Positions 14,097-42,733 of a DNA stretch of 64,000 bases are shown here, piece by piece. The translations under genes and the position numbers were made by a program. The stretch lies in contig JAJYDJ010000004.1 of the NCBI GenBank assembly GCA_021777565.1, forward strand, positions 34,077 to 98,076, in the 5' to 3' direction. The DNA comes from a bacterium. Its GTDB lineage: Bacteria > Patescibacteriota > Microgenomatia > Levybacterales > UBA12049. The stretch's first letter is position 1; every line of letters starts with the position of its first letter. The notes below the pieces were generated by a model. The model saw nothing but the letters and a program-made list of their open reading frames with translations, did not search any database and was not told where the DNA came from.

Positions 14097-14099
14097 AGA

Positions 14100-16684: not shown

Positions 16685-16686
16685 CC

Positions 16687-19097: not shown

Positions 19098-19147
19098 ATT
19101 GAATGAGGTCTTGTTCGGTAACTATTGGTTTATATGTTATATGCACT

Positions 19148-19190: not shown

Positions 19191-19228
19191 AAATGCTGAC
19201 GATAAATAATCCAGTAATATCATAAGTC

Positions 19229-21334: not shown

Positions 21335-21451
21335 TCGATTTACTATATTTTACTACTTTTTCTTTTACTGTTAGATTATTGTTTATATTATATAATTTTT
21401 TCTGAATACAAGCTAATTGCATTATGTAAGGAAAAAGCCTAGAATATCTTT

Positions 21452-22846: not shown

Positions 22847-22848
22847 AT

Positions 22849-23595: not shown

Positions 23596-23596
23596 T

Positions 23597-25597: not shown

Positions 25598-25606
25598 TCA
25601 TATACT

Positions 25607-26596
25607 ATGCAACAAATAATTATTGATGCACATACTCATGCTGCGGGTGTCGACTTTTACAATCTTTTTATCCCCCGCAAGCCACTTGTACAAAGTACCA
25701 GAGACTTAATTTTAAAGATGGACTTATATGGCATAGACTACTCAATAGTTATGCCTATGCCATTTGCAATGTATTATGATCCTAGGAAAGTTAGTCAGGG
25801 AGAGTGGGCTCTCAGTGGTCTAGAAGAATTTCCTTATCAAGTATTGAATACCACATTACTTTATGAGTCTCAGGAATATTCCGATCGGCTATTTCCCTTT
25901 ATGGCAATAGATCCTCGTACAAAAGTCGAGGAGCAAATACAATTTCTTACACAACAAGTCGAGAGAAAAAAGATCTATGGTCTTAAGTTACATACATTAG
26001 CAACTAATTCTTCTGCAACTGTGTTGAGTGATAGTTTATTTGCTAAATTCATGAAAAAATATAACTTACCGATTATTATACATGCGGGAAGAGATACAAC
26101 AACATCGCCTATTCATGTCTTGAACTTTGCAAAACAAAACCCAGAAATTCGAGTATGTATCGCACATCTTGCAGGTTTTGACAATTCTGTACTTAAGCAG
26201 TCACTTGAGATTAAAAATGTTTTCTTTGATACTTCACCTTTTTTATCTCATTGTAAATTTGCTGTAGATGATATATCGTCCTATGTCTCATCGGATCGAT
26301 TTAATACGAACTATGATGATCCTGTAAATGCACTTCTAGAACTTTCTACCTATCTTAAATCGAAACTTCTATGGGGATCAGATGAGCCATGGACAAGTGT
26401 AAGCAATCCAAAAGGGGCAGCATTATCTTCATTTTCATATAAAGATGAATGTAGTATTCTAAATCAACTAAACTCTATGAACCATGAAAACACAGTGAAT
26501 GAAATTGCATATACTAATTCACTTAGATTTCTTTATGGTGATGCTTCCCTTAGGCTTACTAAAAAAGCTAATAAGCATCATAAGAATGATCACTGA
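25607..26596 (+). CDS. metal-dependent TIM-barrel hydrolase (amidohydrolase-2-like)
   Basis: 329 aa. N-terminal IIIDAHTHAAGVD (HxH metal ligands), later His/Asp residues (IIIHAGRD, IAHLAG, WGSDEPW). Confidence 0.55.
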   Translation: MQQIIIDAHTHAAGVDFYNLFIPRKPLVQSTRDLILKMDLYGIDYSIVMPMPFAMYYDPRKVSQGEWALSGLEEFPYQVLNTTLLYESQEYSDRLFPFMAIDPRTKVEEQIQFLTQQVERKKIYGLKLHTLATNSSATVLSDSLFAKFMKKYNLPIIIHAGRDTTTSPIHVLNFAKQNPEIRVCIAHLAGFDNSVLKQSLEIKNVFFDTSPFLSHCKFAVDDISSYVSSDRFNTNYDDPVNALLELSTYLKSKLLWGSDEPWTSVSNPKGAALSSFSYKDECSILNQLNSMNHENTVNEIAYTNSLRFLYGDASLRLTKKANKHHKNDH

Positions 26597-26681
26597 ATCT
26601 CCCTCAAACTTTGCTGCACTCAATTCTGGGGCATCTGTACTAAAAAGATTCTTTCTGTCATAGAAATGGTATACTCACTGT

Positions 26682-27218
26682 ATGCAAACACTTCAGAGAT
26701 ATCGGATACAGATCACTGGTCCTTCAGGAAGTGGGAAGTCATATTTTGCTAAACAGCTAGAAAAAATGGGGTATCCTGCTATTGATGCAGATAATGTTAA
26801 CAAATTGGGGATGTGGGTAAACAGTCAAGGCGAAATAGTAGAATACAATCACGATGGTGACCTACAGTGGTTGCAAGAACATAAGTGGGTGTGGGATATA
26901 AAATTTCTTCTTGAATATCTACATACAAAACAAAAAGTTATTTTATTTGGCGGTGCATCAAATGAACATGAAACAGCAAATGAGTTTGATTATGTCTTCT
27001 ATTTAAAACTGCTAAAGGATGAAATTTTACAAAACCTCTTGAGAGAAGAAAGAACAAATCCATATGGTAAGACTGATATACAGCAAATATATGCTTCTTC
27101 AAAAATTGATCTATTTTATCAGAACATTCCTCACGAATGGACTCGACTTGTGTCGCGTAATCCAAAAGATTTGATTTCTGAGATAGAAGAGTATTTACAA
27201 GCAAAAATTTTATTATGA
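26682..27218 (+). CDS. P-loop NTPase, small-molecule/nucleoside kinase-like
   Basis: 178 aa. Walker A ITGPSGSGKSYFAKQL at the N-terminus. Size and layout resemble small kinases. Confidence 0.5.
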   Translation: MQTLQRYRIQITGPSGSGKSYFAKQLEKMGYPAIDADNVNKLGMWVNSQGEIVEYNHDGDLQWLQEHKWVWDIKFLLEYLHTKQKVILFGGASNEHETANEFDYVFYLKLLKDEILQNLLREERTNPYGKTDIQQIYASSKIDLFYQNIPHEWTRLVSRNPKDLISEIEEYLQAKILL

Positions 27219-27247
27219 TCTTGTAAGGATCAGTTGTTTATTTTTAT

Positions 27248-27724
27248 ATGGATACAACATCAAACAAACCATATCGTCTTGGTGTAAACGCAATCGTTAT
27301 TGACCAGGATAATAACTTTCTTTTGGTGCAAAAGAATGGGTATAAGGATAATGAGTGGAACTTCTTAGGTGGTGGCCGAGAGGAAGGAGAGACATTGGAG
27401 CAGAACTTGTTTAGAGAGTTGAATGAAGAAATTGCTATAGAGGAATCAGATTTCGAAATGGTTGGCGTAAGCTCGCATAAAATTGAATATGATTTTCCAG
27501 CAGATACTGTTTTAAAAATTCATGGTGGAAAATATCGTGGGCAATCGTATGACCAGGTTATTCTCAGGTTTATTGGAGACAAGGCCAAGCTTGTTTTCTC
27601 TACAGGAGAATTTAGGACCCATAAATGGGTCAAGGCAGATGAATTAGAGAAGTGCTTGATCTTTCCAAACCAGTACAGCAATCACAAGAAGGCAATTGAT
27701 GAACTTATGCCAGGAATCTTGTAA
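27248..27724 (+). CDS. NUDIX hydrolase
   Basis: 158 aa. Nudix box GGGREEGETLEQNLFRELNEEIAIEE (GX5EX7REUXEEXGU). Confidence 0.75.
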   Translation: MDTTSNKPYRLGVNAIVIDQDNNFLLVQKNGYKDNEWNFLGGGREEGETLEQNLFRELNEEIAIEESDFEMVGVSSHKIEYDFPADTVLKIHGGKYRGQSYDQVILRFIGDKAKLVFSTGEFRTHKWVKADELEKCLIFPNQYSNHKKAIDELMPGIL

Positions 27725-27762: not shown

Positions 27763-28491
27763 ATGAATGATCAAAGTTCAAGAATAGACAAACCGTACTG
27801 GATCAAAACATTACAGCAAGAACTAGTAGAGTTTAGCAGAATAAGAACTATTCTTCTCCACAAAAACCCTACTTACCCATTTTTATATCCTGCTATTGAG
27901 AATGCTGAATATGCAATGGCAAACATTCTTGCATATCTCGAAGGAGTGAATCCTCATCTTGTTCAGTTTGCAGATGATTACTTTGGTAACAGGAATATAT
28001 CTATGCACAGAGAATTTCTCCGTGAGCTTCACACCAATATAGAAGATGGACTCAGTCAAATTGTAGAGCAAAAGCAATTTCCTTTGCTTATTACCAAAGA
28101 GGAACAGGCAAAGAGTATTGTCGAAAGTATTAAGCAAAAGCTTGGAGATACCACAATAATTAGAACAGAGCTGAAGAAGATTCTTAGGCTTGGTGGAATG
28201 TTTCCCACATTTAATGATTATCTCAATACTGTTATAGAAAATATTCCGCTTCCAGAAACATATAGGCATGAATGCAGAATGTATTTTGATGCGTTCAGTA
28301 TCGTAAGAAACAAAATGTCTCATTCCGACATGACACTTTCAGAATCAGAAAAGGAAAAGCTCATTACTGCAAAGTTTGGGAAGATCATCGCTCCAGATGG
28401 AAAAGGCATGCAAATGACTTTTGAAGGGTACAAGCTACTTATTGGTGATGCTATACGCTTTTTTGACCAATTGAATTCACATATGATCTAG
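27763..28491 (+). CDS. hypothetical protein
   Basis: 242-aa ORF with no recognised motif. Last + strand gene before the recombinase remnant. Confidence 0.4.
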   Translation: MNDQSSRIDKPYWIKTLQQELVEFSRIRTILLHKNPTYPFLYPAIENAEYAMANILAYLEGVNPHLVQFADDYFGNRNISMHREFLRELHTNIEDGLSQIVEQKQFPLLITKEEQAKSIVESIKQKLGDTTIIRTELKKILRLGGMFPTFNDYLNTVIENIPLPETYRHECRMYFDAFSIVRNKMSHSDMTLSESEKEKLITAKFGKIIAPDGKGMQMTFEGYKLLIGDAIRFFDQLNSHMI

Positions 28492-28542
28492 ATAATCTTA
28501 CAATATTGAGCTTTTAATGCTCTGAAAATAAATACATATAAG

Positions 28543-29034
28543 TTAGCTTGCGAAAACGAAATTAGAAGGCATACAGTATGTAGGGACATGGAAATGTTTA
28601 TCGTTCGAGCCACAAAAAGTTCGAATACTGTCTATGTCCGGCAGCATTCGTGGACTTTGTTCGTACAAAGACTCCAATTGGACTGTCCTATCAATCCCAT
28701 CCACAGGTTCTAACTTATCGTTAATTGCATTTGCCTCTTGGGCAGCGTCTTTTAGTGCTAAAAGTACTTCATCAAGGCGAATTGTTAAAATTTTGTCTTT
28801 TAAAATGAGGTTCGAACCAAGTTTTGCCAGAATATATCGCTTGTCTTCTACCTCTCCCTCGTTAAATCTCTTTAGAGCATCTCTTGCAAAGTCAAATGTC
28901 TCATCGGCTTTAGCCAGCCATTTATTTACTCGTTCTCCTGTGTCATTAAGTAACTCCTCAAGTCTTTGCAAAGGTAAAGATTCCTGTTCCTTCTTTAGAG
29001 GAACAAGCAGAAATCGTAAAAGAAATTGATGCAA
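28543..29034 (-). pseudogene. C-terminal remnant of a second large serine recombinase gene
   Basis: The 163-aa ORF aligns with the C-terminus of the intact recombinase (10867..12642): RVNKWLAKADETFDFA...KRYILAKLGSNLILKDKILTI vs RADEWLELCEQTFNFA...KRAILHALGSNLTLTDKILSI. The catalytic and recombinase domains are absent. Confidence 0.6.
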
Positions 29035-29129
29035 GAATCAAAAAGGCAGAACAACTTCAAAAAGTGGCCATAGAGGGGATAGAGCAAGCAAACAGACAAG
29101 TCGAGTCTATACTCTTAGCTACTAACTGA
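28950..29129 (+). pseudogene. fragment resembling the conserved C-terminal region of a type I R-M specificity subunit (HsdS)
   Basis: 59-codon stop-to-stop ORF, KVKIPVPSLEEQAEIVKEIDARIKKAEQLQK..., which resembles the HsdS repeat motif (i)PlPpLeEQk.Iv..ld. No start codon and no target-recognition domain. Confidence 0.3.
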
Positions 29130-29233
29130 ATATTCTTAAATTCTTAAAAGAAATGAGACCAATTTTCTTGCAGATGATATTCATCATAATGTTAGGATCG
29201 ATCGATTTAAACGGCTTTATAGAGGCTCATAGC

Positions 29234-29647
29234 CTATTCCTGTTGTTGGGCTAGATACTGATCTATCAACTCAATATCTCTTTTATCTTTCTCTCTATTC
29301 AGTTTTTCTTTGTAGTAACGTACTTCCTCTATTCGCACAAATGGGATACCTTCTCTTATTTCTGCTTCTTTAATCATCGTTGGTATATCCTTTCTTGTTA
29401 CTGCAAACCACCAGTTAGATATTTTTACTCCACTAAATCGTATGAATCCTTCTTCATTTGGCGTATATTCCTGAATGAGCTTTCCCCAGAGTTTATTTGT
29501 AACGATAAGGTCGATATTAGGTACTTCACGCAGGCCATACAACCCAAGAAGAGCACTGCCAAACACAGCGTACTCGCTGATTGGGAAGCTTTGTTCTTTA
29601 ACAGAAGCAATCAGGGTTTGAATGGACATAAAACTGATTATAAGCAA
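29234..29647 (-). CDS. hypothetical protein (possible minimal nucleotidyltransferase-like)
   Basis: 137 aa. FGSALLGLYGLREVPNIDLIV partially fits a GS...D NTase motif. Weak. Confidence 0.3.
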   Translation of the reverse strand: MLIISFMSIQTLIASVKEQSFPISEYAVFGSALLGLYGLREVPNIDLIVTNKLWGKLIQEYTPNEEGFIRFSGVKISNWWFAVTRKDIPTMIKEAEIREGIPFVRIEEVRYYKEKLNREKDKRDIELIDQYLAQQQE

Positions 29648-29688
29648 CTCTCTCTAGAGTTTCTACTAAGAGTTGCTATAATACACTC

Positions 29689-30909
29689 GTGACGAGAGTA
29701 CAACTTACCAATAAGACATACATATCAACAGCGACAGATGACGTTAAATTATTCTACCCAAGATCTCAAATGCAATCAGGTGAGCTCATATCAGGTTTTC
29801 AAGTAAATCGAAAACTAATTGATGGTCTCACAAAAGCTGAAGTTGTGTTTTTTTCAATGTTTTGGAAGCCAATCGGCGATTCTTTTCTATTTTTGTCTGT
29901 CTTAACCGCTTGTCTGGAATATTTGCAACTTACTCGACTAAATAATATGCCCAAAATTATCATTGATGACACGTTTTCTAACCTCATAAGACATCTGAAC
30001 ATACTCACAGAATATGAATTTATTTCACATGCAGTTGATTGGTTTAAGCAAAGCGTGCGCGAGAATAAAAATGTTGTTTTAATAACTGACGATGATCCAT
30101 TTACAATGGGAGAAAGTCCTGCAGTATTTAACACAGAAGAATATGTTTATCCGAAGTTTCACGAGAAACTAGTTGATGGCGATATTATCGATTATCCCTC
30201 ACGGCCAGCGAGATATTTTCTAACCTTTGAGAGAGAGGTAGGTATTAGATTAAAATCTGATCCTAATCTATCGCTTCCTGACTTTATCATGAATGATGAT
30301 ATTACTCTCACACAAAAATGTATAAATGATTTTGGGATTGATCTTGATACTCCTGGCCTTACATTCCTGGGAGTTATTAACCAAACCAGCATGGTGGAAA
30401 AAAAATTTGGAGGTCTAAGGTATCTTGAGGTAATAGATAAGCTATATGAGCTTAATAAAAATATTGCTGTTCTTTTCCTAGCTAACACAAAAGAAGAGTC
30501 GCCAAGTGAATGGCTAGCAGTTCTTGAAAAGATTAAAAAAAGTCCATATAAGGTCTATTTGATCGACTCTCGGGATTTTGAATTGCTTGCCTACATGTTC
30601 GCTCGATGCAAGTTGGTGTTGGGGAATGATACAGGCTTTTCTCATTTAGCCGCAATGTGTAAAAGATCCTTGTTAGCACCAAATGTGCCTTGCGTGATCA
30701 CTTACTCCAGACATGATTATGGGAAATGGAGTACAGGAAAAGAAAATGTCTATCCTGTCGTCACAGAGTTAAGTCAATACCTCAAGGATAGTAACTCCTC
30801 AATTAGTCGAGACAAAATTGATGTTACCAACTGGGGTTTAAAAGAGTGGGCATATTCTATATCTGAAGACGCTGTTTTTAACAGAATCAAAAAAATATGG
30901 GAAAAGTAG
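29689..30909 (+). CDS. GT9-family glycosyltransferase (heptosyltransferase-like)
   Basis: 406 aa. C-terminal LVLGNDTGFSHLAAMC resembles the GNDSGPMHLAAA signature of ADP-heptose:LPS heptosyltransferases. Confidence 0.6.
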   Translation: MTRVQLTNKTYISTATDDVKLFYPRSQMQSGELISGFQVNRKLIDGLTKAEVVFFSMFWKPIGDSFLFLSVLTACLEYLQLTRLNNMPKIIIDDTFSNLIRHLNILTEYEFISHAVDWFKQSVRENKNVVLITDDDPFTMGESPAVFNTEEYVYPKFHEKLVDGDIIDYPSRPARYFLTFEREVGIRLKSDPNLSLPDFIMNDDITLTQKCINDFGIDLDTPGLTFLGVINQTSMVEKKFGGLRYLEVIDKLYELNKNIAVLFLANTKEESPSEWLAVLEKIKKSPYKVYLIDSRDFELLAYMFARCKLVLGNDTGFSHLAAMCKRSLLAPNVPCVITYSRHDYGKWSTGKENVYPVVTELSQYLKDSNSSISRDKIDVTNWGLKEWAYSISEDAVFNRIKKIWEK

Positions 30910-31841
30910 ATTTAACTATTCTTGTACCTGCTTGGAATGAAGAAAGAAATATAACAAGCTTTCTTAGTGATATTGCAGATCAATTAAATTATAGTTCATT
31001 TAAAACAGATGTCATCATCCTTGCTAATGGATGTGTCGACAATACTATCCCACTGGCAAAGTCTCATATACAAAAACAGTCCTTACCAAATGTTTCATGG
31101 CTAATACAAGTGTTTGATGATCCATTTAAGAATAAAGTTCTTAATGCAGGCATCGAGTTGGCAAAATCCGATATTATACTCAACCTTGATGCCGATTCTC
31201 GTTTAGAAAAAAATTGTATTTCTCGCCTTTATAGCTTTTTACTAGATAATCCAAAGGTTAATTTAGTTGGAGGGCTGGATATACCTATTTACGACAAGCT
31301 CAATAAGGAAACACTACTTTATCAATTTCAGAGAACTCAACAGATCTGGAGAGAAGAAAGAGGTCGTGTTATGGCAATCGGTGCTGTTATGATGTATCGT
31401 AAATCGTCATTTAACGGGTTCCCCTTGGATGCAATCTCTGAAGACACCTGGCTCTCTTTATACATTGCTTCTAAGTTTGGCTGGGAATCTGTAAAAGTAC
31501 TCATGGATGCCAATATTCACATCTTCGCTCCGACAAGTTGGAGTGATTACTTAAAACAACAAACTCGTTGGGACACAGGATATGTCCAACTTATGAAAAA
31601 CCACCCAGAGCTTCAATCAACGTATGATAATCGTAGAAGCTTGTTTAAAAGAAGAAGTAATGAAGAGATATTCGAGAGTGTATACAACAGGCTTGATGAA
31701 GAAAAGATAGCTCGATCGCGCTTAGTTGAGCTTCGTGATATAATCAATATCATTATTGAAGAAAATAGTGATATTGAGTACGACTCAATACTGAGAAATG
31801 TAGGGACATGGGACCCTATTATTTCCACAAAGGGAGCATAA
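30897..31841 (+). CDS. family 2 glycosyltransferase
   Basis: 314 aa. LTILVPAWNEERNI, ILANGCVDNT, DADSRL (DxD). Overlaps the upstream GT9 gene by 13 nt. Confidence 0.7.
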   Translation: MGKVDLTILVPAWNEERNITSFLSDIADQLNYSSFKTDVIILANGCVDNTIPLAKSHIQKQSLPNVSWLIQVFDDPFKNKVLNAGIELAKSDIILNLDADSRLEKNCISRLYSFLLDNPKVNLVGGLDIPIYDKLNKETLLYQFQRTQQIWREERGRVMAIGAVMMYRKSSFNGFPLDAISEDTWLSLYIASKFGWESVKVLMDANIHIFAPTSWSDYLKQQTRWDTGYVQLMKNHPELQSTYDNRRSLFKRRSNEEIFESVYNRLDEEKIARSRLVELRDIINIIIEENSDIEYDSILRNVGTWDPIISTKGA

Positions 31842-31842
31842 T

Positions 31843-32499
31843 ATGAAAACTTATACGAGAGATGAAATTTATGAGCTTCACAAAAAATATACTCAAGGCG
31901 CTCATCCTGAGCGTTTTCTAGATAGTGTCTGGACACATTCTCAAATTGTTGCTGAAATTGCAGATCGTATTTGTGACTTTCTCAAAAAGACGTATGAGGT
32001 CACTCCTAATCGCGAGTTAGTTCAGACTGGGGCACTTCTTCATGACATTGGAGTATATAAATGTCATGATGACGAGTTAAACCCCGTCCAGGAGCCTGGA
32101 TATATTTCCCATGGTATAGAAGGCTATAAAATACTCAAAAAAGAAAGTTATCCAGAGTACTTGGCTCGCTTCCCGTTGTCACATACAGGAACAGGTATTA
32201 CAACAGAAGATATTGAAAGAGAAAACTTCAACTTAGAACTTAAAAATTATATTCCTGTCACTCTTGAAGAAGAGATTGTTTGCTATGCTGACAAGTTTCA
32301 TACAAAGTATCCAGCTTTTGACACGTTTGATAAAGCAAAGTCTAGACTTGAGAAATTTGACCCAAGTAAAGGGATACTTATGAATCGATTTAAAAAGAAG
32401 TTTGGTATTCCTGATGTAAGCGATCTAGAGGCCAAATACAAAGATTGGCAAGAAGAGTTAGATCACTACCTCACCTCCCTGTCCGAAGCTAAAAAATGA
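31843..32499 (+). CDS. HD-domain metal-dependent phosphohydrolase
   Basis: 218 aa. H...GALLHDIGVYKCHDD (the HD motif) plus downstream His/Asp residues. Confidence 0.65.
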   Translation: MKTYTRDEIYELHKKYTQGAHPERFLDSVWTHSQIVAEIADRICDFLKKTYEVTPNRELVQTGALLHDIGVYKCHDDELNPVQEPGYISHGIEGYKILKKESYPEYLARFPLSHTGTGITTEDIERENFNLELKNYIPVTLEEEIVCYADKFHTKYPAFDTFDKAKSRLEKFDPSKGILMNRFKKKFGIPDVSDLEAKYKDWQEELDHYLTSLSEAKK

Positions 32500-33602
32500 T
32501 CTCTAAAGAATTAGTTGTCATAGAACGATATGTCCCTAGAAATCCTGTCCATGAACCAAATAGAGATGGTTTTCGTGCAGACAGTTTATTAGTAATCGAC
32601 AATGCCGATTTAGGTCCAATTGGTGTAGTAAGAAAAAAGACGCATTACGTTAACAGTCCAGCAGATGTGATGATAATGCCCTTAGAGGGAGCAATCTCAC
32701 AAATTACTGAACTATCCGAAGCAGAAGCAGCCTCATTCTTGTTAACTTGTGCGAGAGTAGTTGATGCAATGAGAGAAATTTCGCCTGATGGCTCTCCAGT
32801 TATTGCAATAAATCAGCAACCTGATTGTATAATGCTTCCTACTAAATTTGCTCCAGATGGCACTGAGCTTAAAGTACAGACAATAGATGCAATACATGCA
32901 CATGTATTTTTAGAAGATGGGCGAGGACTACCGCGTGGGACAATTTCTTCAATGGATAAAGTTGCATCAACTGACTTCTTTGATCCACTCGGACATGCAG
33001 TAAGTCAATTATTTATTAGTGAGGTTAATAGACAGTTGGATGAAGCTGGGCTTGCTACTCAATCAACATACAACACAGATCACTTCCCACTTGGTATCAA
33101 TGTACCTTTCGACGGAGATATTGTTGCAGTACTTACAGATCCTCGTATTGCACGATTTATACAAGCTACGCAGAGGAGTTACGTACAGACATATAGAATG
33201 ATTGAGCAGATTTGGCAAAATTACTCAGGTGAAGCAAGGCGAGATCAGATTACACAATTTTTCTCAGGGTTATCTGGAGAAAACATACAAGTAAGAGAAT
33301 TTGTAGAAAGAGTGATTCTTTCTCTTAGAGAAGATGTATCTGGTGTTGAAAGACACCATAGATTAGTACAAGGCCCTGCTCTGACCTGGGTTATTTATGA
33401 AAGAGATGGAAGGTGTTATATTCACTTAACTCCTCGCTTTTTTTCTCGCGGAAACGCAATGGAAGATTTAGGGGTTTGGGTAGAACCAGTAGAGGAAGTT
33501 ACACCAGATCTATCTGAAGCAAATGACTTCTATAGGTTACTTATGGTAAAATTGGGATCAACCCTTCTTGTTTCTGAAGGTGCATCCTTATATGAAAATT
33601 AA
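32496..33602 (+). CDS. hypothetical protein with HIT-superfamily-like N-terminal region
   Basis: 368 aa. LLVIDNADLGPIGVVRKKTHYVNSPADVMIMPLEG...IDAIHAHVF resembles the HIT fold, but the third His of the HxHxHxx nucleotide-binding motif is replaced by Phe. Tentative. Confidence 0.3.
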   Translation: MISKELVVIERYVPRNPVHEPNRDGFRADSLLVIDNADLGPIGVVRKKTHYVNSPADVMIMPLEGAISQITELSEAEAASFLLTCARVVDAMREISPDGSPVIAINQQPDCIMLPTKFAPDGTELKVQTIDAIHAHVFLEDGRGLPRGTISSMDKVASTDFFDPLGHAVSQLFISEVNRQLDEAGLATQSTYNTDHFPLGINVPFDGDIVAVLTDPRIARFIQATQRSYVQTYRMIEQIWQNYSGEARRDQITQFFSGLSGENIQVREFVERVILSLREDVSGVERHHRLVQGPALTWVIYERDGRCYIHLTPRFFSRGNAMEDLGVWVEPVEEVTPDLSEANDFYRLLMVKLGSTLLVSEGASLYEN

Positions 33603-35274
33603 AAAAGCAAATAAAGTGCCTTTCATAACCTCACTTGAGGACGATTTCCTATCAGGAAAGAATAAAAAACAGAAAAAGTTATTCAATGAGGTAATTGATG
33701 CTGGATTTGATTTTTATTCAGGCAAACAACGTGATCAAAAATTTCTTGTCTATAGAACTCCAGACGAGCTTAAAGAAGTCTTTGCAGAAGCAATGCCAGA
33801 AGATAGTACTGACCTACCGTCAATCATCAACTATCTCAGACTAATCGGACACTATTCAATTTCCCAATCAGATTTGAGCTACTTAGCGTTTCCTGACTCT
33901 GGGAACTCTATAGCTGCACTACTTGGAGACATCTATGGTAAATTTTTGAATCAAAACCTGATTGCATTTGATCGAAGTGCACCAGCAGCAACCATTATAG
34001 AAATTCAGCTTATTGAATGGTTACGAGCGTTAATCGGGTATGAAAGTAAAGAGTTAAAGCAAATTGAAAACCTAGCAGAAGTATCAGGTATGTGCACGAC
34101 AGGCGGGCATATGTCAAATCACGTAGCCACTCTCTCTGCACTTAATTGCAAATACCCTCAAATAAAAAAAGATGGGCTTTCAAGTCTAGATCATTCCCCG
34201 AAAATAGTTTTAGCTGGCAAGATAGGTCACTACTCATATGGAGCTGCTATGCACCATTTAGGACTTGGGAACGCAAATATTATTAACACTGATTCTAACG
34301 ATGACTTCACGACTAACATAGATGCACTTGAGAATGTGTTAGAACAGCACAAGGACAAAAATGATATTTTTATGGTTGTAGCAGTAGCGGGAAACTGTAG
34401 AACAACGGGAATAGATAACATTGCCTCAATTGCGAAAATATGCAAGAAATATGGAATATGGCTCCATGTTGATGCATGTCATGGAGGCAGTTTATTATTC
34501 TCTGATAAATTAAAAAAACGCTATCTCATGGGTATCGAAGAGGCAGATTCTGTCGCACTAGATCCCCATAAAGGGCTTTTTGTGGCATACCCTTGCAGCT
34601 TTGTTCTCTTTAAGAAGAGAGATACGCTTGTAACATTCACTCGATATGAAAAAGAGGCAAGAAATGGTGAATCATGGGATTTAGGTTACATAACACCTTT
34701 CTTAGGATCAAGAGGATTTGAGTCCCTCAAGCTTATGTTACTCATAAAGCACTTAGGCAAAAAAAGGCTGAGCGAGATAACTGAAAAAAGGCAGGGAGAT
34801 GCCTTATATGTAGAGTCACTCATAGCAAAGTCAGGATATTTTGTTTTGTTTAATGATATGACATTTTATCGAATGGCTTTTGTTTATTATCCAAACAAAA
34901 TTAGAAAGCAAGTCTCAAAGTTCACTCTCTCAGATGAGACTAATCAAAAAATTATCAATTGTATTGATCATTATACACATACAATCAACAGTGAGTTATA
35001 TAAGGAAGGTGATATTTGTCTTGATGAGTTTAAATTACATGACATAGGGAACCAGACAGCAACTAATGCTAAGGAGACACGATTTTATGTAATGAGTATT
35101 ACGACAGGTAACCCACTACTTACCAATGAGAACTTAAAGAGATCCTTAAGCTTTCTCTTTAAAAAGGCAAAGCGTTACGAGTCTGCTATGGGAAAAGACA
35201 TAGTATCTATAATAAAAAGTGACACATATGCCCCGAAGGTAACAAAAACATATGGACCAGCAGGATGGAATTAA
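33568..35274 (+). CDS. PLP-dependent group II amino-acid decarboxylase
   Basis: 568 aa. The Lys-containing S-x-H-K site is in DSVALDPHKGLFVAYPCSFV, with an upstream GGHMSNHVAT-type region. The start may be the Met at 33592. Confidence 0.7.
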   Translation: MFLKVHPYMKIKKANKVPFITSLEDDFLSGKNKKQKKLFNEVIDAGFDFYSGKQRDQKFLVYRTPDELKEVFAEAMPEDSTDLPSIINYLRLIGHYSISQSDLSYLAFPDSGNSIAALLGDIYGKFLNQNLIAFDRSAPAATIIEIQLIEWLRALIGYESKELKQIENLAEVSGMCTTGGHMSNHVATLSALNCKYPQIKKDGLSSLDHSPKIVLAGKIGHYSYGAAMHHLGLGNANIINTDSNDDFTTNIDALENVLEQHKDKNDIFMVVAVAGNCRTTGIDNIASIAKICKKYGIWLHVDACHGGSLLFSDKLKKRYLMGIEEADSVALDPHKGLFVAYPCSFVLFKKRDTLVTFTRYEKEARNGESWDLGYITPFLGSRGFESLKLMLLIKHLGKKRLSEITEKRQGDALYVESLIAKSGYFVLFNDMTFYRMAFVYYPNKIRKQVSKFTLSDETNQKIINCIDHYTHTINSELYKEGDICLDEFKLHDIGNQTATNAKETRFYVMSITTGNPLLTNENLKRSLSFLFKKAKRYESAMGKDIVSIIKSDTYAPKVTKTYGPAGWN

Positions 35275-36622
35275 AATAAGAACTATATTAGAGTCAAATA
35301 GATTCTTATCGCCAACATACTCAAAGTGGTATGCGAATATTTTTGTGGATTTGTTTCACAGTAGTAGTCTCAGCCCTAGTGACTGTTTAAACCAGCTCGA
35401 AGCTGGTTATCATCCTCATAGAGTTTTATATAAATTTTTAGGTGGAAGCACATTTACGCAAGATAAACTTAACTATCATCCGATTGATTACAGTAAACAT
35501 ATTTCATTCTGCACGAAAGATGAACAAATGCATTGTAATGACCATGATCTAATTGACTACCTTAATTCTCAATATATTGGTAATTTTTCTGGATTTATCG
35601 AAAGCCTTTCTCCAATAACTACGGGAAGAATGTACTTAGATACTGGCACTGCACCGAAGCTACTGTTTCTCCCAAATAACAGAACATTTGTAGTTATTTG
35701 TATAAAGTCACAAAAGGAATATCTTGCAAATTACTATGTACTGAGTAGGCTGTTTAATGAAAGTAACTGTTGTAATGATCTTACTATTAAGACTATTGAT
35801 TCAATTGGTGTAGTGCGCAGCAACGGATTACAGTACTTCGTATCAGAATTTAAAGGTTTAGATTATGAAGCACTGATACTTGAATATGATAAAACAGAGA
35901 AAAAAGATACCTTATTAAGGGTATCACGAGAGCTAGAAGAACTATTTCTGGAAAACAATCTTTTTATTAGAAATCTTGCTCCTAGAAATATTTTATTTAA
36001 TGGCAATCATACGAGCTATCTTATTGATTTTGACAATGTCTATAACATCGAGGACAAGCACGATGTAAAACTCGCATCTAAGGAATTAAACAGAGACATA
36101 TGGTATGGGGATGTACTCTCTCGAAGAGATATAAAAACAATATTCAAAAAAAGAATCTTTTCATTTCCAGATGAGGCACAATTAACAGACATCTTTGAAA
36201 CGACTTTCTTTGAACGAGACAAAGTTAGATCAAGGGACTTAAAATACCTTTACTCTTTAGTAAGAGCCTTCGAGCAGTATGATCATTATTTAGACATAGA
36301 TATCTATGGTCACCAATTGGGTAGGTATATCTCAGATTATTGGGATTTATCAAGTGAAGTTAAACTGTATAAGTTTATTGCCCAAAATAAAACAAAGATT
36401 AAATACCTTAGAGCAATTCTTTATTTATTGTCTAGGCTCGATCAGGAGTTACTTCTAAGAAAAAAATACCACTTAGATAAAGATCTGGAATTGTTATCTG
36501 AACTAGCATTTCATAAAATTGCAGAAAATAGAGCTAACCCAGGTGTGAAGGCTCTTAAAGTTACACTTGATCCAGATTTAAGTTTCACAGAAAGGTACTT
36601 GGCGGTAAGGAGTGCAATATGA
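35252..36622 (+). CDS. hypothetical protein with protein-kinase-like / APH-like catalytic loop
   Basis: 456 aa. IRNLAPRNILFNGNHTSYLIDFDNV resembles an H/xRDxxxxN catalytic loop plus a DFD (DFG-like) motif. Confidence 0.35.
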   Translation: MDQQDGIKIRTILESNRFLSPTYSKWYANIFVDLFHSSSLSPSDCLNQLEAGYHPHRVLYKFLGGSTFTQDKLNYHPIDYSKHISFCTKDEQMHCNDHDLIDYLNSQYIGNFSGFIESLSPITTGRMYLDTGTAPKLLFLPNNRTFVVICIKSQKEYLANYYVLSRLFNESNCCNDLTIKTIDSIGVVRSNGLQYFVSEFKGLDYEALILEYDKTEKKDTLLRVSRELEELFLENNLFIRNLAPRNILFNGNHTSYLIDFDNVYNIEDKHDVKLASKELNRDIWYGDVLSRRDIKTIFKKRIFSFPDEAQLTDIFETTFFERDKVRSRDLKYLYSLVRAFEQYDHYLDIDIYGHQLGRYISDYWDLSSEVKLYKFIAQNKTKIKYLRAILYLLSRLDQELLLRKKYHLDKDLELLSELAFHKIAENRANPGVKALKVTLDPDLSFTERYLAVRSAI

Positions 36623-37161
36623 AGAAAAAAATATCATGGAAAGAACTAACAACAAGAAATGGCTATCCAGCTGACGAAGTAATATCTGCACTCCAAAAAG
36701 AGATCCGTCGCAATAATCAGGATAAAGCAGTTTACTGGGCATATGAGTTATGCATCTCTGGGAAAGTATTTGAGACAAAGTTCTGGGAAAGAATAATAAC
36801 TATCTCAGTGGAAGACATTGGTTTCGGTAACCCTTTGGCCGTTGTAATAGTCAATTCTCTTAAGAACTCATATTACTCTGAATTTGAGCACCAAGACGAC
36901 TCGTTAATTCAGGCTCTATTTGCTGCAGCATATTTAGCCTCATGCACGAAAGACAGATACATTGATGAATATAAAAACTATCTAAAAGAGAGTAAAATCA
37001 AGTTAGAGGTTCCTGATTATGCACTAGATAAGCACACAAAGAGGGGAAAGACATTGGGGAGAGATGACAAACACTTCTGGACCGTCGCAGCTAAACTTTC
37101 TCCTGAGTTAGCAAAAAGGAACAAGAAGTATTTAAAACTTGTCTTAAAATCACTCAAATAA
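36619..37161 (+). CDS. hypothetical protein
   Basis: 180-aa ORF with a 4-bp overlap with the upstream gene. No motif recognised. Confidence 0.35.
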   Translation: MKKKISWKELTTRNGYPADEVISALQKEIRRNNQDKAVYWAYELCISGKVFETKFWERIITISVEDIGFGNPLAVVIVNSLKNSYYSEFEHQDDSLIQALFAAAYLASCTKDRYIDEYKNYLKESKIKLEVPDYALDKHTKRGKTLGRDDKHFWTVAAKLSPELAKRNKKYLKLVLKSLK

Positions 37162-37162
37162 A

Positions 37163-38350
37163 ATGGCAGAGGCAGAACCACTTCGAATTGGTATTGATGT
37201 CAGTAGAGCTAGTCGTGAAAATCATGGCATTCCCATTTATACACGTAGCGTCTTGGCTGAGCTTGGCAAGTTAGATACGACTGACCAGTTTGTCTTATTA
37301 AGTTATCCAGATAGTCCAGTTGCTCATGGATTTGGCCTTCAAGATCCTGAGTTAGCGGCAATTCCATATTCTGGGAGATATATCCCTTGGGTGAGAGTAT
37401 TTCAGGAACAAGTGCTTTATCCAGCAGCACAACAAAGGCTCAATTTAGATGTCATGTGGCACCCTCAAAATCATGGCCAGTTTTGGACTCCAGTTGGTTA
37501 CGTTTGTACCCTACATGATGTTTTGCCATACTCCAGACCAGATCTTGCGCAGGACTTAGACACAAGAAGAGAGCAAGCTCTTTACTGGAGTCGAGTACAA
37601 AGTGCTGCTCACGCAGACATGATAATCACAGTCTCAGAATTTAGTAGAAAAGAAATCATTAGGCTACTTGGCGTTGATCCATCGCGCGTTGTTGCAGTAC
37701 AGAATGGTATAGACCACACAACATTTAGAGTTCTACGGTCAGAGGTAGATAGAGCAAGACTACAAACACAATATGGTTTACCAGAAAGATATGTTCTTAC
37801 AGTTGGTAGTTATGGACCACATAAGGACCTAGCAACAATGATAAGGGCATTCAAAACCAGCGACCTCATGCGACTTGGATATAACCTCGTTATGGTAGGG
37901 CCTAAGGATGAAATTGTATACACGTCTGACCATGAAGGATTGGAAGAGATGGTGAGGGACGAAGGGCTAGAAGGAAGAGTCTTAATGCTTCCACCAGTGC
38001 CAGTTACAGATTTAGTAGGGATGTATAACGGTGCCAGTATGTTTTGCATTACATCTCAATTTGAGGGGTTTGGGCTTACGCCTCTCGAAGCAATGGCTTG
38101 CGGGGTACCTGTTATTTCATCTGACTCAAGCTCGTTGCCTGAAGTTTGTGGGAACGCGGCGCTATATGCTCATGTCGGAGACTATCTAGGGTTTGCCGAG
38201 CGGATGAACTTATTAGCAACGGATATTGAATTAGCTCGCAGAATGACTAGCTTAGGCCTTATGCAAGCTGCCAAATACGATTGGGCAACTACCGCTCAGA
38301 AAACACTTGATATATTACAACGGGTCGGAAGAACGAACAGAAGGTCTTAG
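37163..38350 (+). CDS. GT4 (group 1) glycosyltransferase
   Basis: 395 aa. C-terminal [28 protein letters not shown] is the classic GT4 motif. Noticeably higher GC than its neighbours. Confidence 0.8.
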
Positions 38351-38442: not shown

Positions 38443-38480
38443 CCCATAAAAGACCTGGCTTATGCCAGTTTTTTTATGGG
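38443..38480 (+). terminator. rho-independent terminator after the GT4 gene
   Basis: CCCATAAAAGACCTGGC-TTAT-GCCAGTTTTTTTATGGG. The inner stem is CTGGC/GCCAG with a TTAT loop, followed by a T7 run. Confidence 0.5.
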
Positions 38481-38505: not shown

Positions 38506-38856
38506 TTAGCTAGAATCCGACACTTCGAAGAAGTTAGTGCCCTTGTGGTACACGTCCGGCAGCACGTTTGTACGCATGTCTGGCTTAAGAAGCACAACAT
38601 ATGGCTTTTTGAAGCTAAAAGTAAGCATTTTGTCTTTCAAAAATTTATAGCGCCATCCGTGCCAAAAGTCGCTGTCAACAAAAATAAGAAGCGAGCCGTT
38701 TACTATGCAGTCAGGCTTACCGTAGAGCTTGGGGTGCTTCTCATAGTTTATTTTATAGCTGTCTAATAAACCCAAAAACTTTTGCTCTAGCTGCGTATTA
38801 GTACTTCTAATACTAGACATGTTATATGTGCGTTGAGCTTTAGTGAGGTTGTCCAT
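38506..38856 (-). CDS. vsr: very-short-patch repair endonuclease (Vsr)
   Basis: 116 aa. TKAQRTYNMSSIRSTNTQLE...GKPDCIV...FVDSDFWHGW matches the Vsr N-terminal and catalytic motifs (RSxNMSxIRsKNT...PD...FxHGCFWH). Confidence 0.7.
   Translation of the reverse strand: MDNLTKAQRTYNMSSIRSTNTQLEQKFLGLLDSYKINYEKHPKLYGKPDCIVNGSLLIFVDSDFWHGWRYKFLKDKMLTFSFKKPYVVLLKPDMRTNVLPDVYHKGTNFFEVSDSS
38545..38564. repeat. att-core-like copy of the tRNA-Gln 3' end (GTCCGGCAGCA)
   Basis: GTGGTACACGTCCGGCAGCA. The 11-nt core is identical to tRNA-Gln 10918..10928 and 17/20 identical to the 41404..41423 copy. Lies inside the Vsr 3' coding end. Confidence 0.5.
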
Positions 38857-38881: not shown

Positions 38882-39901
38882 TTAAAATTCCATGTAATAT
38901 TTGTCGCCGTCCATTTTGTAAAAATTGATGCTGTTTCTGCCGTATGCGTCTAATGTATCTTGAGTAACAGGAGTAAGAGGTAACAAAGCACCGCTCTTTT
39001 GCAGTTTGCCTTTTATCCATTGGCCTAATATAGATAAATTACCCCTTGAGCGGATATTTTTGAAATAGTCTCCACTTGTTTTCATTGGAATAATAAACCC
39101 ATCATCTGTGTAGGCAGTAAAGTCGCCCTTGGGGTAAAGAGGGTTAGAGGTAATGTCTCTATTTGCAATCAACTCTACTTCATACCATGGCCTCGCGAGC
39201 ACCTTTCCTGTTGTCCTGCTCCACCTGCCTTTACCAAAATATACATTAAGATTTGATTTTTCTTTATCAGCAACTCTTGTAAGAGGGTAGTCTAACTCTG
39301 GCAGCAAAGACTTATCTACAGTAGCGGGGTCATATTTGGGTAAGTCATCAAGCGTCTTGAGAGAAATCTTATTACTGTAGTCAGAAGTACCAGGTACAAC
39401 AATATCGGCTTTAACTATAGAAACAGCATTATCCGGCTGGAAAAGATAGTCAAGAAAGTTATCTAAGCCATTTACTGTTTCGTCATCACCTATTGAAGCC
39501 GTACATTCAATGTTTTCTGTTAAACCGCTGCGGGAGAAATTTGATGAGCCCAAGTAGTACTTCTTTTGCTGTGCATTTTCAAAGAGGTATACTTTCCCGT
39601 GATATTTGCCATTATAACTAACATAAACTCCGCTGCCATTGCCTAAACTTTCAAGGCTGTTACTCAAACTGGTTAAACGGGTTAGTTTATTTGCCGTCAG
39701 ACCCTCATAAAAAGCCATACCAACAAGAAGTCTTGCTTTCCCGCCTTTTTCTGCTATTCTCTCAAAGTCACCATAAAATTTATTGATTATATCCAGAGAA
39801 ACGTAGCCAGATGCTATCGTAACGCTTTCAGCATCTCTAAATTCATTTTCAACTTTTTGCAGAAAATTTCCGCCTGAGCCATCTGTATTAGTCCACAACA
39901 T
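38882..39901 (-). CDS. PLD-family (Nuc/BfiI-like) restriction endonuclease candidate
   Basis: 339 aa. YHGKVYLFENAQQKKYYLGSSNFS fits the HxK(x)4[DE](x)6-9GSxN phospholipase-D nuclease motif. Sits between a C5-MTase and Vsr. Confidence 0.45.
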   Translation of the reverse strand: MLWTNTDGSGGNFLQKVENEFRDAESVTIASGYVSLDIINKFYGDFERIAEKGGKARLLVGMAFYEGLTANKLTRLTSLSNSLESLGNGSGVYVSYNGKYHGKVYLFENAQQKKYYLGSSNFSRSGLTENIECTASIGDDETVNGLDNFLDYLFQPDNAVSIVKADIVVPGTSDYSNKISLKTLDDLPKYDPATVDKSLLPELDYPLTRVADKEKSNLNVYFGKGRWSRTTGKVLARPWYEVELIANRDITSNPLYPKGDFTAYTDDGFIIPMKTSGDYFKNIRSRGNLSILGQWIKGKLQKSGALLPLTPVTQDTLDAYGRNSINFYKMDGDKYYMEF

Positions 39902-39907: not shown

Positions 39908-41017
39908 TTAGCCAACTAGTGGCAGTTGATTATAATTTTTACTTTCAACTTGAATATATTTCAAGGCATCGCCTGAGAGTTGTCTAAGTTGTTTTTCTTC
40001 TGTCTTAGTATAATTACCTGCAAATACTTTCATAAGCTCTTTTGCTACTGCTCTAACACCTGCTGGGGGGACTGAATTGCCTATTTGCTTTCTAACCTCA
40101 GTTATTGTGCCTTCAAAAATAAAGTCATCTGGGTAGCCAAAAAGCCTTGCACGCTCTCTATTGGTCAAAGGCCTTGGCTCACTATAGTGATAACCCCAAG
40201 TGCCTCCCCCTCCGCCTGCAATAATAGTTGTAGATGGTTTATTCCTATTAAGCCTGCGGTAAACATGGCTAATCATACCTTTAACATAGTATGGGCTGTC
40301 TTTGGGAATATCTGTAAAATTTCCTCCCTCTGGAATTAGGCTTATTATTTTTGCAGTCCTTTCTTTAATATTTATTAGCTCATTGTTATAAAGTGCTTTT
40401 TCAACGCCTTTTAGAGCTTCACCGGTAGTCACATAATTAGTTGCATTATGAGTCGGCTCAGGCTTCACAAATTCAAAGGGAATATCGTTTCTAATACCTA
40501 TTATGAGTACTCTTTCTCTTAATTGAGGCACGCCATATTCTGCAAAGTTAAATAAATTTACATAAATTCTATAACCAGCCCCATCAATATGAGAGAAATC
40601 TTTTACTATTTGCTTTATAGCCATTCCTTTATTTGCCGTTAGTATTCCCTTGACATTTTCTGCTACAAATACTTTTGGTAATTTAGTTTCAACTGCTCTG
40701 ACGAAGTGTTTATATAAGTTACCTCTATCTGTTTCAATACCGCCTCTTTTCCATATCATTGAAAAGTCCTGGCATGGAAACCCGCCGGTAATTATGTCGC
40801 AGTTGGGGACTTTGTTAAAATCAACATCATTTATGTCGCCCTCAAATATGTGGTCTCCAAAATTTCTTTTATAAGTTTCGCAAGCAGCATGGAAGTTGTC
40901 ATTTGCCCAAACTACCTCAAAACCCTCTTTCGCAAAGCCTAAGTCAAGACCGCCACAACCGGAAAATAAAGATAATATTTTGGGTTTATTCGTTTTGCGA
41001 GCTTTACCATTTTGCAT
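39908..41017 (-). CDS. DNA (cytosine-5)-methyltransferase
   Basis: 369 aa. Motif I LSLFSGCGGLDLGF, motif IV GGFPCQDFS, motif VI ENVKG, C-terminal motifs QIGNSVPP. Confidence 0.85.
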   Translation of the reverse strand: MQNGKARKTNKPKILSLFSGCGGLDLGFAKEGFEVVWANDNFHAACETYKRNFGDHIFEGDINDVDFNKVPNCDIITGGFPCQDFSMIWKRGGIETDRGNLYKHFVRAVETKLPKVFVAENVKGILTANKGMAIKQIVKDFSHIDGAGYRIYVNLFNFAEYGVPQLRERVLIIGIRNDIPFEFVKPEPTHNATNYVTTGEALKGVEKALYNNELINIKERTAKIISLIPEGGNFTDIPKDSPYYVKGMISHVYRRLNRNKPSTTIIAGGGGGTWGYHYSEPRPLTNRERARLFGYPDDFIFEGTITEVRKQIGNSVPPAGVRAVAKELMKVFAGNYTKTEEKQLRQLSGDALKYIQVESKNYNQLPLVG

Positions 41018-42430: not shown

Positions 42431-42733
42431 TTGGAATACAAACATAAAAGTATGACCTCACGAAAAGAACACTCAGTAGTAACTTTTACCGTCTATATAC
42501 TTCGTACATCATCTAACACAATCTACATTGGTCAGACGAATAATCTAGACAAACGTTTAAAGGAGCACAAAAGTAAAACGACGAGGTCGGCGAAGTACAT
42601 GAAGTATTTTGACTCTTTTGAACTGGTGTATACAGAAGTCTACGGGACCAGAACCGAAGCACTGCAGAGAGAGTGGCAGCTGAAACAACTGACGAGAAAG
42701 CAAAAGGACGCTCTGATAAATAAGCATTATTAG
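42431..42733 (+). CDS. GIY-YIG nuclease-domain protein (UPF0213/YhbQ-like)
   Basis: 100 aa. VYILRTSSNTIYIGQTNNLDKRLKEH is the GIY...YIG motif plus the conserved R and E. Confidence 0.65.
   Translation: MEYKHKSMTSRKEHSVVTFTVYILRTSSNTIYIGQTNNLDKRLKEHKSKTTRSAKYMKYFDSFELVYTEVYGTRTEALQREWQLKQLTRKQKDALINKHY

Follow-up and report, generated by a model that had tools for sequence, protein, structure and literature searches.

Described systems closest to the cassette

Among the closest described counterparts of the cassette reported here, an operon of eight genes in a 64,000-nucleotide stretch (the window) of contig JAJYDJ010000004.1 from a bacterium of Patescibacteriota (Levybacterales, UBA12049), are the Leloir and Kennedy pathways. 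In these pathways, represented by GalK/GalT, by serine decarboxylase, ethanolamine kinase and a cytidylyltransferase (SDC-EK-ECT), and by LicA/LicC, a pyridoxal phosphate (PLP)-dependent decarboxylase, a kinase fold and a nucleotidyl-transfer step yield a nucleoside diphosphate (NDP)-activated alcohol or sugar. Comparable components are found in the cassette, and the GalT-type histidine triad (HIT) fold of the Leloir transferase is the predicted fold class of one cassette protein, p368. On the other hand, the catalytic Asp and the beta3 Lys are missing from the kinase-like protein of the cassette, p456, the HIT motif of p368 reads HxHx(F/Y), neither a cytidylyltransferase-fold nor a LicD-type enzyme is encoded, and the p368 and p456 families have no Pfam model. 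p368 bears no detectable sequence similarity to Apa2, the ADP-glucose phosphorylase At5g18200 or DUF4931 (profile vs PDB, E>1), and differs from them in the third motif residue and in an extra conserved motif, SRGNA.

The phage clusters for thymidine hypermodification encode the kinase 5-HMUDK, an aGPT-Pplase/AADT transferase and a PLP decarboxylase (PMC8989533). The logic of activating by phosphate, substituting and decarboxylating is common to these clusters and the cassette, as are the carriage on mobile elements and the combinatorial tailoring genes, and terminase genes adjoin one relative of the cassette. The enzymes themselves differ: the phage kinase is of the P-loop type while that of the cassette is protein-kinase-like, the phage transferase is HhH glycosylase-like while the cassette has a HIT protein, and the PLP enzyme is another one. 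Furthermore, the cassette has no hydroxymethylase (Pfam, PHROGs), is chromosomal in Patescibacteria and was not found in IMG/VR.

The set of waa genes for the inner core of lipopolysaccharide (LPS), with heptosyltransferases of glycosyltransferase (GT) family 9, the GT4 enzyme WaaG and the kinase-like WaaP/WaaY, resembles the cassette in encoding three fold classes together. In contrast to that set, the GT9 protein of the cassette falls far below the WaaC/WaaF cutoffs, we saw no genes for Kdo or lipid A in the window, the core does not consist of GTs, and the hosts among the named sources are metagenome-assembled genomes (MAGs) of Patescibacteria.

A PLP decarboxylase domain likewise takes part in the maturation of microcin C (McC). 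The HIT superfamily is represented both in that system, by MccH, and in the cassette, and genes related to aspartyl-tRNA synthetase (AspRS) lie on the same island as the cassette. MccH is a small enzyme of the Hint type (Hint clade) with the motif HxHxK and a compensating Glu (E93) (PMC7157772). The first-pass annotation of the window had drawn an analogy between p368 and MccH, which we do not uphold: p368 is 368 aa long, is predicted to have two lobes and to belong to the GalT/Apa2 branch, carries HxHx(F/Y), and is partnered by a kinase-like protein instead of an aminoacyl-tRNA synthetase (aaRS); no MccA or MccB is present.

Gene content of the operon

The eight open reading frames (ORFs) of the operon lie on the plus strand at 29689-38350, with a gene spacing of -35 to +1 nt. 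They are given below with the basis of each assignment, followed by the hairpin at the end of the operon.

29689..30909, plus: GT9-like glycosyltransferase, 406 aa (Pfam)
30897..31841, plus: soluble GT2 glycosyltransferase, 314 aa (Pfam)
31843..32499, plus: HD(IG) phosphohydrolase, 218 aa, core gene (Pfam)
32496..33602, plus: p368, predicted two-lobed HIT-superfamily protein, 368 aa, signature core gene (fold)
33568..35274, plus: group II PLP-dependent amino-acid decarboxylase, 568 aa, most conserved core gene (Pfam)
35252..36622, plus: p456, predicted atypical protein-kinase-like protein, core gene (fold)
36619..37161, plus: p180, stand-alone MgsA/RarA C-terminal helical domain, 180 aa (Pfam, PDB)
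37163..38350, plus: retaining-type GT4 glycosyltransferase, 395 aa, final gene of the operon (Pfam)
38455..38468, no strand assigned: bidirectional terminator-like hairpin between the GT4 gene (plus) and vsr (minus) (consensus scan only)

The true start of the decarboxylase is probably about 33592 rather than 33568. Consecutive plus-strand genes with short overlaps had been described in the first-pass annotation, and this layout is borne out for the eight ORFs. Nine such genes had been counted, but no plus-strand ORF begins at 29234; 29234-29647 is occupied by an ORF of 137 aa on the minus strand (p137) without a family match. A pattern 'GS...DxD' seen by eye in p137 is reminiscent of minimal nucleotidyltransferases, an assignment that we rejected for want of support in Pfam, PADLOC and PDB. 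Four GTs of three families had been claimed as well: the three families are there, but the block holds three GTs including a single GT2, and a second GT2 gene lies outside it at 19229-20263. The calls of an HD phosphohydrolase (Pfam HD, E 1.7e-15) and a group II PLP decarboxylase (Pyridoxal_deC, E 3.4e-47) were correct, and the HIT-like call for the gene at 32496 was right at the level of the fold. The MgsA_C-like gene encoding p180 had not been named.

No cassette protein has a transmembrane (TM)-like segment, and an Rfam search for riboswitches and T-boxes returned tRNA-Gln only. A flippase, a polymerase, an ABC exporter, an initiating phosphoglycosyltransferase and an oligosaccharyltransferase were sought with Pfam, and none is present in or next to the cassette at any locus. 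As there is no TM-like segment and no flippase, polymerase or initiating transferase, the chemistry of the cassette is likely cytoplasmic. Altogether, we regard the eight genes as a single cytoplasmic operon, carried as cargo on a low-GC island and representing one copy of a rare cassette.

A rare cassette conserved in Patescibacteria

Among 5.77 billion proteins, p368 is represented by 18 clusters and p456 by 14. An exhaustive profile search of 1.84 billion representatives retrieved 73 proteins at E<=1e-3, 17 of which make up the core family. The named sources of the relatives are Candidatus Amesbacteria, Shapirobacteria, Saccharibacteria and 'Patescibacteria group bacterium BroJett037'; the window itself is part of a metagenomic contig of 953 kb. 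We fetched the contigs of the relatives and mapped all proteins of the island onto them (tblastn); the same genes were found in the same neighborhood, with identities of 30-65%, in at least nine independent loci or lineages. As the grouping recurs in at least nine independent loci, it goes beyond chance. The cassette is thus real, conserved and extremely rare, and it is restricted to Patescibacteria among the named sources. Our literature search yielded no paper describing the cassette and nothing relevant on DUF4254 or on fusions of glutamyl-tRNA reductase (GluTR) and AspRS. For the third-tier relatives of p368, the contigs were too short for an informative gene context.

The genes for the HIT protein, the decarboxylase and the kinase-like protein occur together in every full-length relative locus, and the decarboxylase gene is always immediately upstream of the kinase-like gene or of a gene in which the HIT and kinase-like proteins are fused. 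The HD gene was found in every full-length first-tier locus, while the second-tier locus L021 has a NUDIX gene instead. Identities to the proteins of the window are 53-65% for the decarboxylase, 44-62% for the HD protein, 30-42% for p368 and 32-41% for p456. These loci show an invariant core that comprises the decarboxylase, the kinase-like protein directly behind it and the HIT protein, with the HD protein in nearly every locus.

The GTs fall into two sets. The GT9 and GT2 genes always form an adjacent pair followed by the HD gene (the window, L004, L009, L013/14 and L019; in L011 the GT2 gene is at the contig edge), the GT9 orthologues of L004, L009, L013/14 and L019 being 41-50% and the GT2 orthologues 37-43% identical to those of the window. 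p180 and GT4 co-occur in the window, L006/18, L007, L010 and L011; the p180 orthologues of these four relative loci are 59-69% identical and always accompanied by GT4, for which the identity is 53-60%. Both sets are present in the window and L011. The GT sets are thus interchangeable, and the invariant part of the cassette is the non-GT core.

Accessory genes vary among the loci. A carbamoyltransferase was found in L010 and L021, and a DUF4254 gene in L009 and L019. The accessories of L013/14 are an arginase-family protein, a methyltransferase-like protein (PF10237), a second GT2 and an O-methyltransferase; in these two loci, the fusion gene is followed by the PF10237 gene, GT9, GT2, HD and then the arginase-family gene. 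An uncharacterised family of 555-586 aa, with no member in the window, is found alongside the cassette in six lineages. Its positions are as follows.

L007, 7529-9289
L006, 7565-9292
L010, 5933-7645
L009, 3556-5223
L021, 6506-8248
L019, about 1450-3040

No Pfam or PDB match was obtained for this family. Two identities were considered for it, a diverged GT9-GT2 fusion and a PLP enzyme; in hhalign, it proved unrelated to the GT9 and GT2 alignments on the one count and to the decarboxylase alignment on the other. Its motifs 'NSGTSANEAV', 'VxDxTVDP' and 'SATKHQDGGR' look by eye like those of fold-type-I PLP enzymes, for which hhalign gives no support.

In L021 (167-14896), the second-tier core comprises the decarboxylase, the kinase-like protein, the HIT-like protein, NUDIX, a 580-aa protein and a phage-type carbamoyltransferase, and it adjoins genes for a DNA methyltransferase, TerS and TerL (phrog_38, E 1e-76). 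The protein p513, encoded beside a second-tier relative, was considered as a further cassette protein and proved unrelated to all of them.

Two protein families without a Pfam model

Neither p368 nor p456 has a Pfam, NCBIfam or significant PDB sequence match. AlphaFold2 models built from the family alignments reached a pLDDT of 89.8 for p368 and 88.8 for p456. In the model of p368, an alpha+beta HIT fold is duplicated over two lobes; Foldseek agrees weakly with the HIT superfamily, and the closest folds are all nucleotide-acting proteins. The sequence comparisons remained below threshold: Pfam HIT matched 3 of the 18 family members at E>=0.054, the p368 profile matched HIT/Ap4A phosphorylase in PDB at E 1.4-2.3, and no significant match to a HIT or GalT profile was found in Pfam, NCBIfam or the profile search of PDB. 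On the basis of the model, we assign p368 to a new family of predicted two-lobed HIT-superfamily proteins in the branch of GalT and Ap4A phosphorylase (Apa2).

Two motifs, KVQT-x4-H-x-H and SRGNA, are invariant in the p368 family. H134-x-H136 is invariant in the 18 family members and also in 24 of 24 distant relatives (aligned with 8 members), all of which keep the element Q(T/S)...HxH. The third residue of the HIT motif in these proteins is F, Y, E or another residue, never H or Q (F138 in p368).

For p456, Foldseek returned 162 PDB matches at E<=1e-3; all of the 50 listed are protein kinases, with Ser/Thr and Tyr protein kinases giving the best alignments. 'FxRNLAPRN' of p456 aligns to HRDLKPEN, and 'IDFD' to DFG. 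No match to an APH or ChoK profile was found at E<=0.01 (Pfam, NCBIfam). The earlier call of an APH-like kinase is thus supported as to the kinase-like fold but not as to APH, since the motifs align to eukaryote-type protein kinases. Judging from the model, p456 represents a new family with a predicted protein-kinase fold, kinase-like but not specifically APH-like. The metal ligands Asn246 and Asp259 (IDFD/E) are invariant across the 15-member family. Neither a Lys in the beta3 strand nor a Glu in alphaC is conserved; instead, the K/R of 'SP(K/R)L' in the first strands is conserved. The kinase-like protein of the second-tier locus L021 has IDYE as the second motif and an intact RD motif.

p368 and p456 are fused into a single protein of 846 aa in L014 (9965-12505) and of 841 aa in L013 (9980-12505), the hosts being Patescibacteria bacterium BroJett037 and a Saccharibacteria MAG. 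As the two are fused in these loci, they likely act together, and we regard the fusion as strong evidence for their functional coupling.

Distant relatives of p368 have a C-terminal RelA/SpoT domain of the alarmone synthetase type (L020, 862-3842; protein P0053), and in L020 the gene for an HD_4 hydrolase follows. Another distant relative is paired with a His_Phos_1 phosphatase. The pairing of a HIT protein with a phosphohydrolase thus recurs outside the cassette. The layout of L020 is reminiscent of pairs of a toxic small alarmone synthetase and a hydrolase.

Decarboxylase, HD protein, glycosyltransferases and p180

The decarboxylase matches PF00282 at E 3.4e-47 (161.4 bits, profile positions 1-373 of 375), and the DPHK motif with the PLP lysine (D332-P-H-K335) is invariant in alignment A6. 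No substrate-defined subfamily could be assigned, as all equivalogs examined (PanP, DABA decarboxylase, GAD, TyrDC and others) were far below cutoff; the best NCBIfam match was PanP (7.5e-43, 146.7 bits vs cutoff 606), and DABA decarboxylase reached 6e-31 (107.5 bits vs cutoff 900). In PDB, 8zpi (1e-45) was followed by CSAD, GADL1 and GAD. The nearest relatives are decarboxylases of small polar, acidic or diamino acids. Besides the Pfam HD match, the HD protein has an HDIG domain (E 1e-10) and matches TIGR00295 below cutoff (E 2.7e-21).

PF01075 covers residues 226-329 only of the GT9 protein (profile 107-206 of 247; E 2e-8, 34.3 bits vs cutoff 22). NCBIfam gave TIGR02193 (27.7 bits vs cutoff 185) and RfaF (18.8 vs 569), and PDB gave 1psw at E 0.022. 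The earlier description as heptosyltransferase-like is therefore confirmed for a GT9 domain in the C-terminal half but not at the WaaC/WaaF equivalog level. Among the ORFs of the island that were scanned, we saw no genes for Kdo, lipid A or ADP-heptose. The GT2 protein matches PF00535 (E 3e-16), with D98 and D100 of the DxD motif invariant in alignment A5.

The GT4 protein matches PF00534 (Glycos_transf_1, E 1.5e-27), PF13439 (E 7e-12) and PF20706 (E 4e-10); its best NCBIfam models (MSMEG_0565, MshA, BshA) are all below cutoff. PF20706, 'GT4-conflict', was pursued as a lead and set aside: although above cutoff, it is a weaker overlap of generic GT4 families, and the source paper of the model merely lists GTs as effectors of vWA-MoxR systems. 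p180 matches PF12002 (E 2.2e-6, 28.1 bits vs cutoff 27) without an ATPase domain, 2r9g (E 7e-7) and 3pvs (E 4.6e-3) in PDB, and phrog_33349 (E 7e-13). At 0.444, the GC content of the GT4 gene stands out from that of the other seven operon genes (0.33-0.39), and the GT4 product has more Arg, Ala and Gly, which hints that GT4 (and the MgsA_C-like gene) is an add-on of different or more recent origin.

A possible route to an activated amine

We tentatively propose that the cassette encodes a cytoplasmic, Kennedy/Leloir-like route by which an amino acid is converted to an activated amine and enters a sugar conjugate. The decarboxylase would act on a common small polar amino acid, or on the phospho-ester of one, to give an amine or amino-alcohol, and the kinase-like protein would supply or bind the phosphate ester. 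The HIT protein, with the invariant His136 as a putative covalent carrier of the nucleoside monophosphate, would nucleotidylate the phosphate to give an NDP-linked amine, following the logic of the Leloir (GalK/GalT) and Kennedy (SDC-EK-ECT, LicA/LicC) pathways. The HD enzyme may strip phosphate or pyrophosphate, either from the product or as a pull on the reaction. The soluble GT sets (GT9+GT2, MgsA_C-like+GT4, or both as in the window) would assemble or decorate the acceptor glycoconjugate within the cell; candidates for the acceptor are a small molecule and a protein or envelope precursor. The carbamoyltransferase, arginase-family and N-methyltransferase-like enzymes of the relatives would tailor the amine.

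This proposal is consistent with the operon structure, the conserved synteny of the trio, the HIT-kinase-like fusion, the metal ligands kept in the kinase-like protein, the nearest relatives of the decarboxylase, the HIT/phosphohydrolase pairing, and the accessory enzymes of the relatives, which act on amines or hydroxyls. Precedents are known in PduX/CobD, a Thr kinase and a Thr-phosphate decarboxylase, in Cj1436/Cj1435 of the Campylobacter capsule, in LicA/LicC and in the plant SDC-EK-ECT route.

Several observations weigh against the proposed route. The second-tier version in L021 has no glycosyltransferase at all. The HIT motif of p368, HxHx(F/Y), lacks the third His/Gln. In p456, the catalytic Asp is replaced by Asn in 17 of 20 members and retained in 3, and there is no conserved beta3 Lys, so that p456 may be no conventional kinase but a pseudokinase or an enzyme of other chemistry. 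A diamine product, to be considered as the nearest named relatives include DABA decarboxylases, would offer no hydroxyl to phosphorylate. Neither a LicD nor a CDP-alcohol transferase, for the transfer of a phospho-amine from an NDP donor, is present in the cassette. Finally, the contexts of mobile elements, restriction-modification (RM), Abi and toxin-antitoxin genes, together with the RelA/SpoT-fused relative, fit a nucleotide-centered conflict role equally well.

The island and a possible role on nucleotides

The cassette lies in a low-GC stretch of the window at about 12-44 kb, with a GC content of 0.33-0.40 vs 0.42-0.46 in the flanks. At the start of this stretch, tRNA-Gln (10856-10927, plus) and the 3' end of a gene for a large serine recombinase (10867-12642, minus) overlap. 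The stretch looks like an integrated island of about 33 kb that carries the cassette, a block of AspRS-like genes and a type II RM system. The RM module is on the minus strand, convergent with the cassette, and is followed by a GIY-YIG gene.

38506-38856, minus: Vsr
38882-39901, minus: NgoFVII-type PLD endonuclease
39908-41017, minus: C5 cytosine methyltransferase
42431-42733, after the RM module: GIY-YIG gene

No Pfam or PHROG match was obtained for four minus-strand ORFs (478, 126, 481 and 442 aa) at 12660-18015, which lie between the recombinase gene and the AspRS block. The protein p242 (27763-28491) contains 'RNKMSH', by eye an Rx4H pattern like that of HEPN RNases, with no support from Pfam, PADLOC or PDB. 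Among the relatives, L007/8/16 and L009 have serine recombinases at the flanks of the cassette, and Abi_C (L014), HEPN/NTase (L004) and CopG genes are found near it.

This setting bears on the main rival of the proposed route, in which the cassette is a mobile module for the hypermodification of nucleotides or nucleic acids, or for a nucleotide-centered conflict, and which we consider unlikely overall. The kinase-like protein would activate a hydroxyl on a base or nucleotide, the HIT protein would install an amino acid by nucleotidyl or phosphoryl substitution, the decarboxylase would trim it to an amine and the GTs would add sugars, while HD or NUDIX enzymes would keep the nucleotide pool in check; the module would thereby protect from restriction and phage or interfere with them. 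The logic parallels that of phage thymidine hypermodification, in which a kinase, a transferase and a PLP decarboxylase act on DNA (PMC8989533). The islands carry serine recombinases (the window, L007, L009), RM (the window), Abi_C (L014) and HEPN/NTase (L004), and the second-tier version, with NUDIX and a phage-type carbamoyltransferase, lies by a DNA methyltransferase, TerS and TerL. The fusion of p368 relatives to a RelA/SpoT nucleotide pyrophosphokinase with HD_4 adjoining, and the nucleotide-acting proteins that are the closest folds of p368, point in the same direction.

On the other hand, Pfam and NCBIfam detected no dUMP/dCMP hydroxymethylase, aGPT-Pplase/AADT, P-loop 5-HMUDK or recognisable DNA-binding domain in the cassette. 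With PADLOC, nothing reached significance and only the HD and PLP domains gave marginal cross-hits (E 1e-4 to 3e-3), so that we rejected a known anti-phage defense system. The MgsA_C-like gene alone has a PHROG match within the cassette, and scans of IMG/VR with three different profiles found no viral copy; with neither the core proteins nor the ORFs at 12660-18015 matching PHROGs, a phage origin of the island was rejected as well. Furthermore, the adjacency to RM is not conserved among the relative loci, and ordinary cellular genes are nearby in most relative loci with both flanks readable. It is rather unlikely that the core represents a previously unrecognised hypermodification system of mobile elements or phages of Patescibacteria, with enzyme families differing from all known DNA-modification pathways.

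Surface glycosylation and the AspRS-like block

An ordinary, strain-variable locus for surface polysaccharide, teichoic acid or S-layer/pilin glycosylation, carried on an island as in serotype conversion, seems improbable to us. In such a locus, the decarboxylase, the kinase and the HIT protein would merely supply a phospho-amine substituent. Three GT families are encoded in one operon, and islands and prophages often carry surface-modifying cargo. The combination of GT9, GT4 and a kinase-like protein resembles the waa set for the LPS core, and soluble GT4/GT2/GT9-like enzymes glycosylate adhesins in the cytoplasm of other bacteria. However, the non-GT core is the invariant part while the GT sets are interchangeable or absent, none of the transport, polymerization and transferase functions listed above is found in or next to the cassette at any locus, and there is no equivalog-level match to a known enzyme for exopolysaccharide (EPS), LPS or teichoic acid.

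Upstream of the cassette, a separate block of aaRS-derived genes occupies 18123-27724 of the window, which also holds GT2, SDR, amidohydrolase_2, AAA_18 kinase and NUDIX genes.

18123-19097, minus: AspRS catalytic core without the anticodon domain
21452-22846: full AspRS
23597-25597: fusion of GluTR_N, a shikimate-DH-type NAD(P) domain and an AspRS core

At 90% identity, both AspRS-core proteins, the full AspRS and the GluTR fusion form single-member clusters. By analogy with Glu-tRNA reductase, the GluTR-AspRS fusion suggests the reduction of an activated aspartyl species.

The first-pass annotation had linked this block to the cassette. We searched for homologues of the block within +/-10 kb in the relatives (tblastn, E<1e-6 and E<1e-4), and no AspRS, GluTR-fusion, SDR, amidohydrolase or AAA_18 homologue was found in the relative loci. 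In the window, the two blocks are about 2 kb apart (27763-29647), and their co-transcription is unlikely because the interval holds three unrelated ORFs, of which two run on the minus strand. The link is thus not supported. It is very improbable that the two blocks jointly make a glycosylated or nucleotidylated aspartate-derived metabolite, possibly a Trojan-horse inhibitor of AspRS, with the HIT protein handling Asp-AMP or phosphoramidates as MccH does: the blocks share one low-GC island and one strand, the best NCBIfam match of the decarboxylase is the PLP-dependent aspartate decarboxylase PanP (below cutoff), the full-length AspRS of the island could be a resistant copy, and the cassette of Amesbacteria comes after other ATP-dependent amide-forming enzymes (AsnB-like, Mur-ligase-like), so that variable neighbors that ligate amino acids are conceivable, but the block is missing from the relative loci, p368 is predicted to be of the GalT/Apa2 type and is fused elsewhere to the kinase-like protein, in contrast to a Hint/MccH-type phosphoramidase (PMC7157772), and no MccB-like (ThiF) enzyme was found among the island ORFs scanned.

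Altogether, the first-pass annotation gave the gene content largely correctly, erring in the gene count and in strand. Its general reading of a tailoring locus, whose amino-acid-derived product is glycosylated and may carry a phosphate or nucleotidyl group, is reasonable in view of the gene content and close to the route proposed above, apart from the involvement of AspRS and MccH. Orthology to a capsule, teichoic-acid or S-layer locus without a link to aaRS genes had been named as evidence to the contrary; the aaRS link is indeed absent in the relatives, but the cassettes correspond to no known locus of this kind.

Implications

The AspRS paralogues are best treated as a separate system. The cassette defines two families for which no model exists, a predicted GalT-like HIT protein and an Asn-substituted kinase-like protein, and their natural fusion in some genomes offers a concrete protein pair for the discovery of enzymes. 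Should the product be an amine-decorated glycoconjugate, the cassette would represent a new way of making NDP-amines; should the target be a nucleic acid, it would represent a new class of hypermodification. The genomes of Patescibacteria are about 1 Mb in size, with very little biosynthetic capacity. Because the 9-kb cassette is conserved in such small genomes and yet almost absent from 5.8 billion proteins, it likely matters for how these episymbionts present themselves to their hosts or phages.

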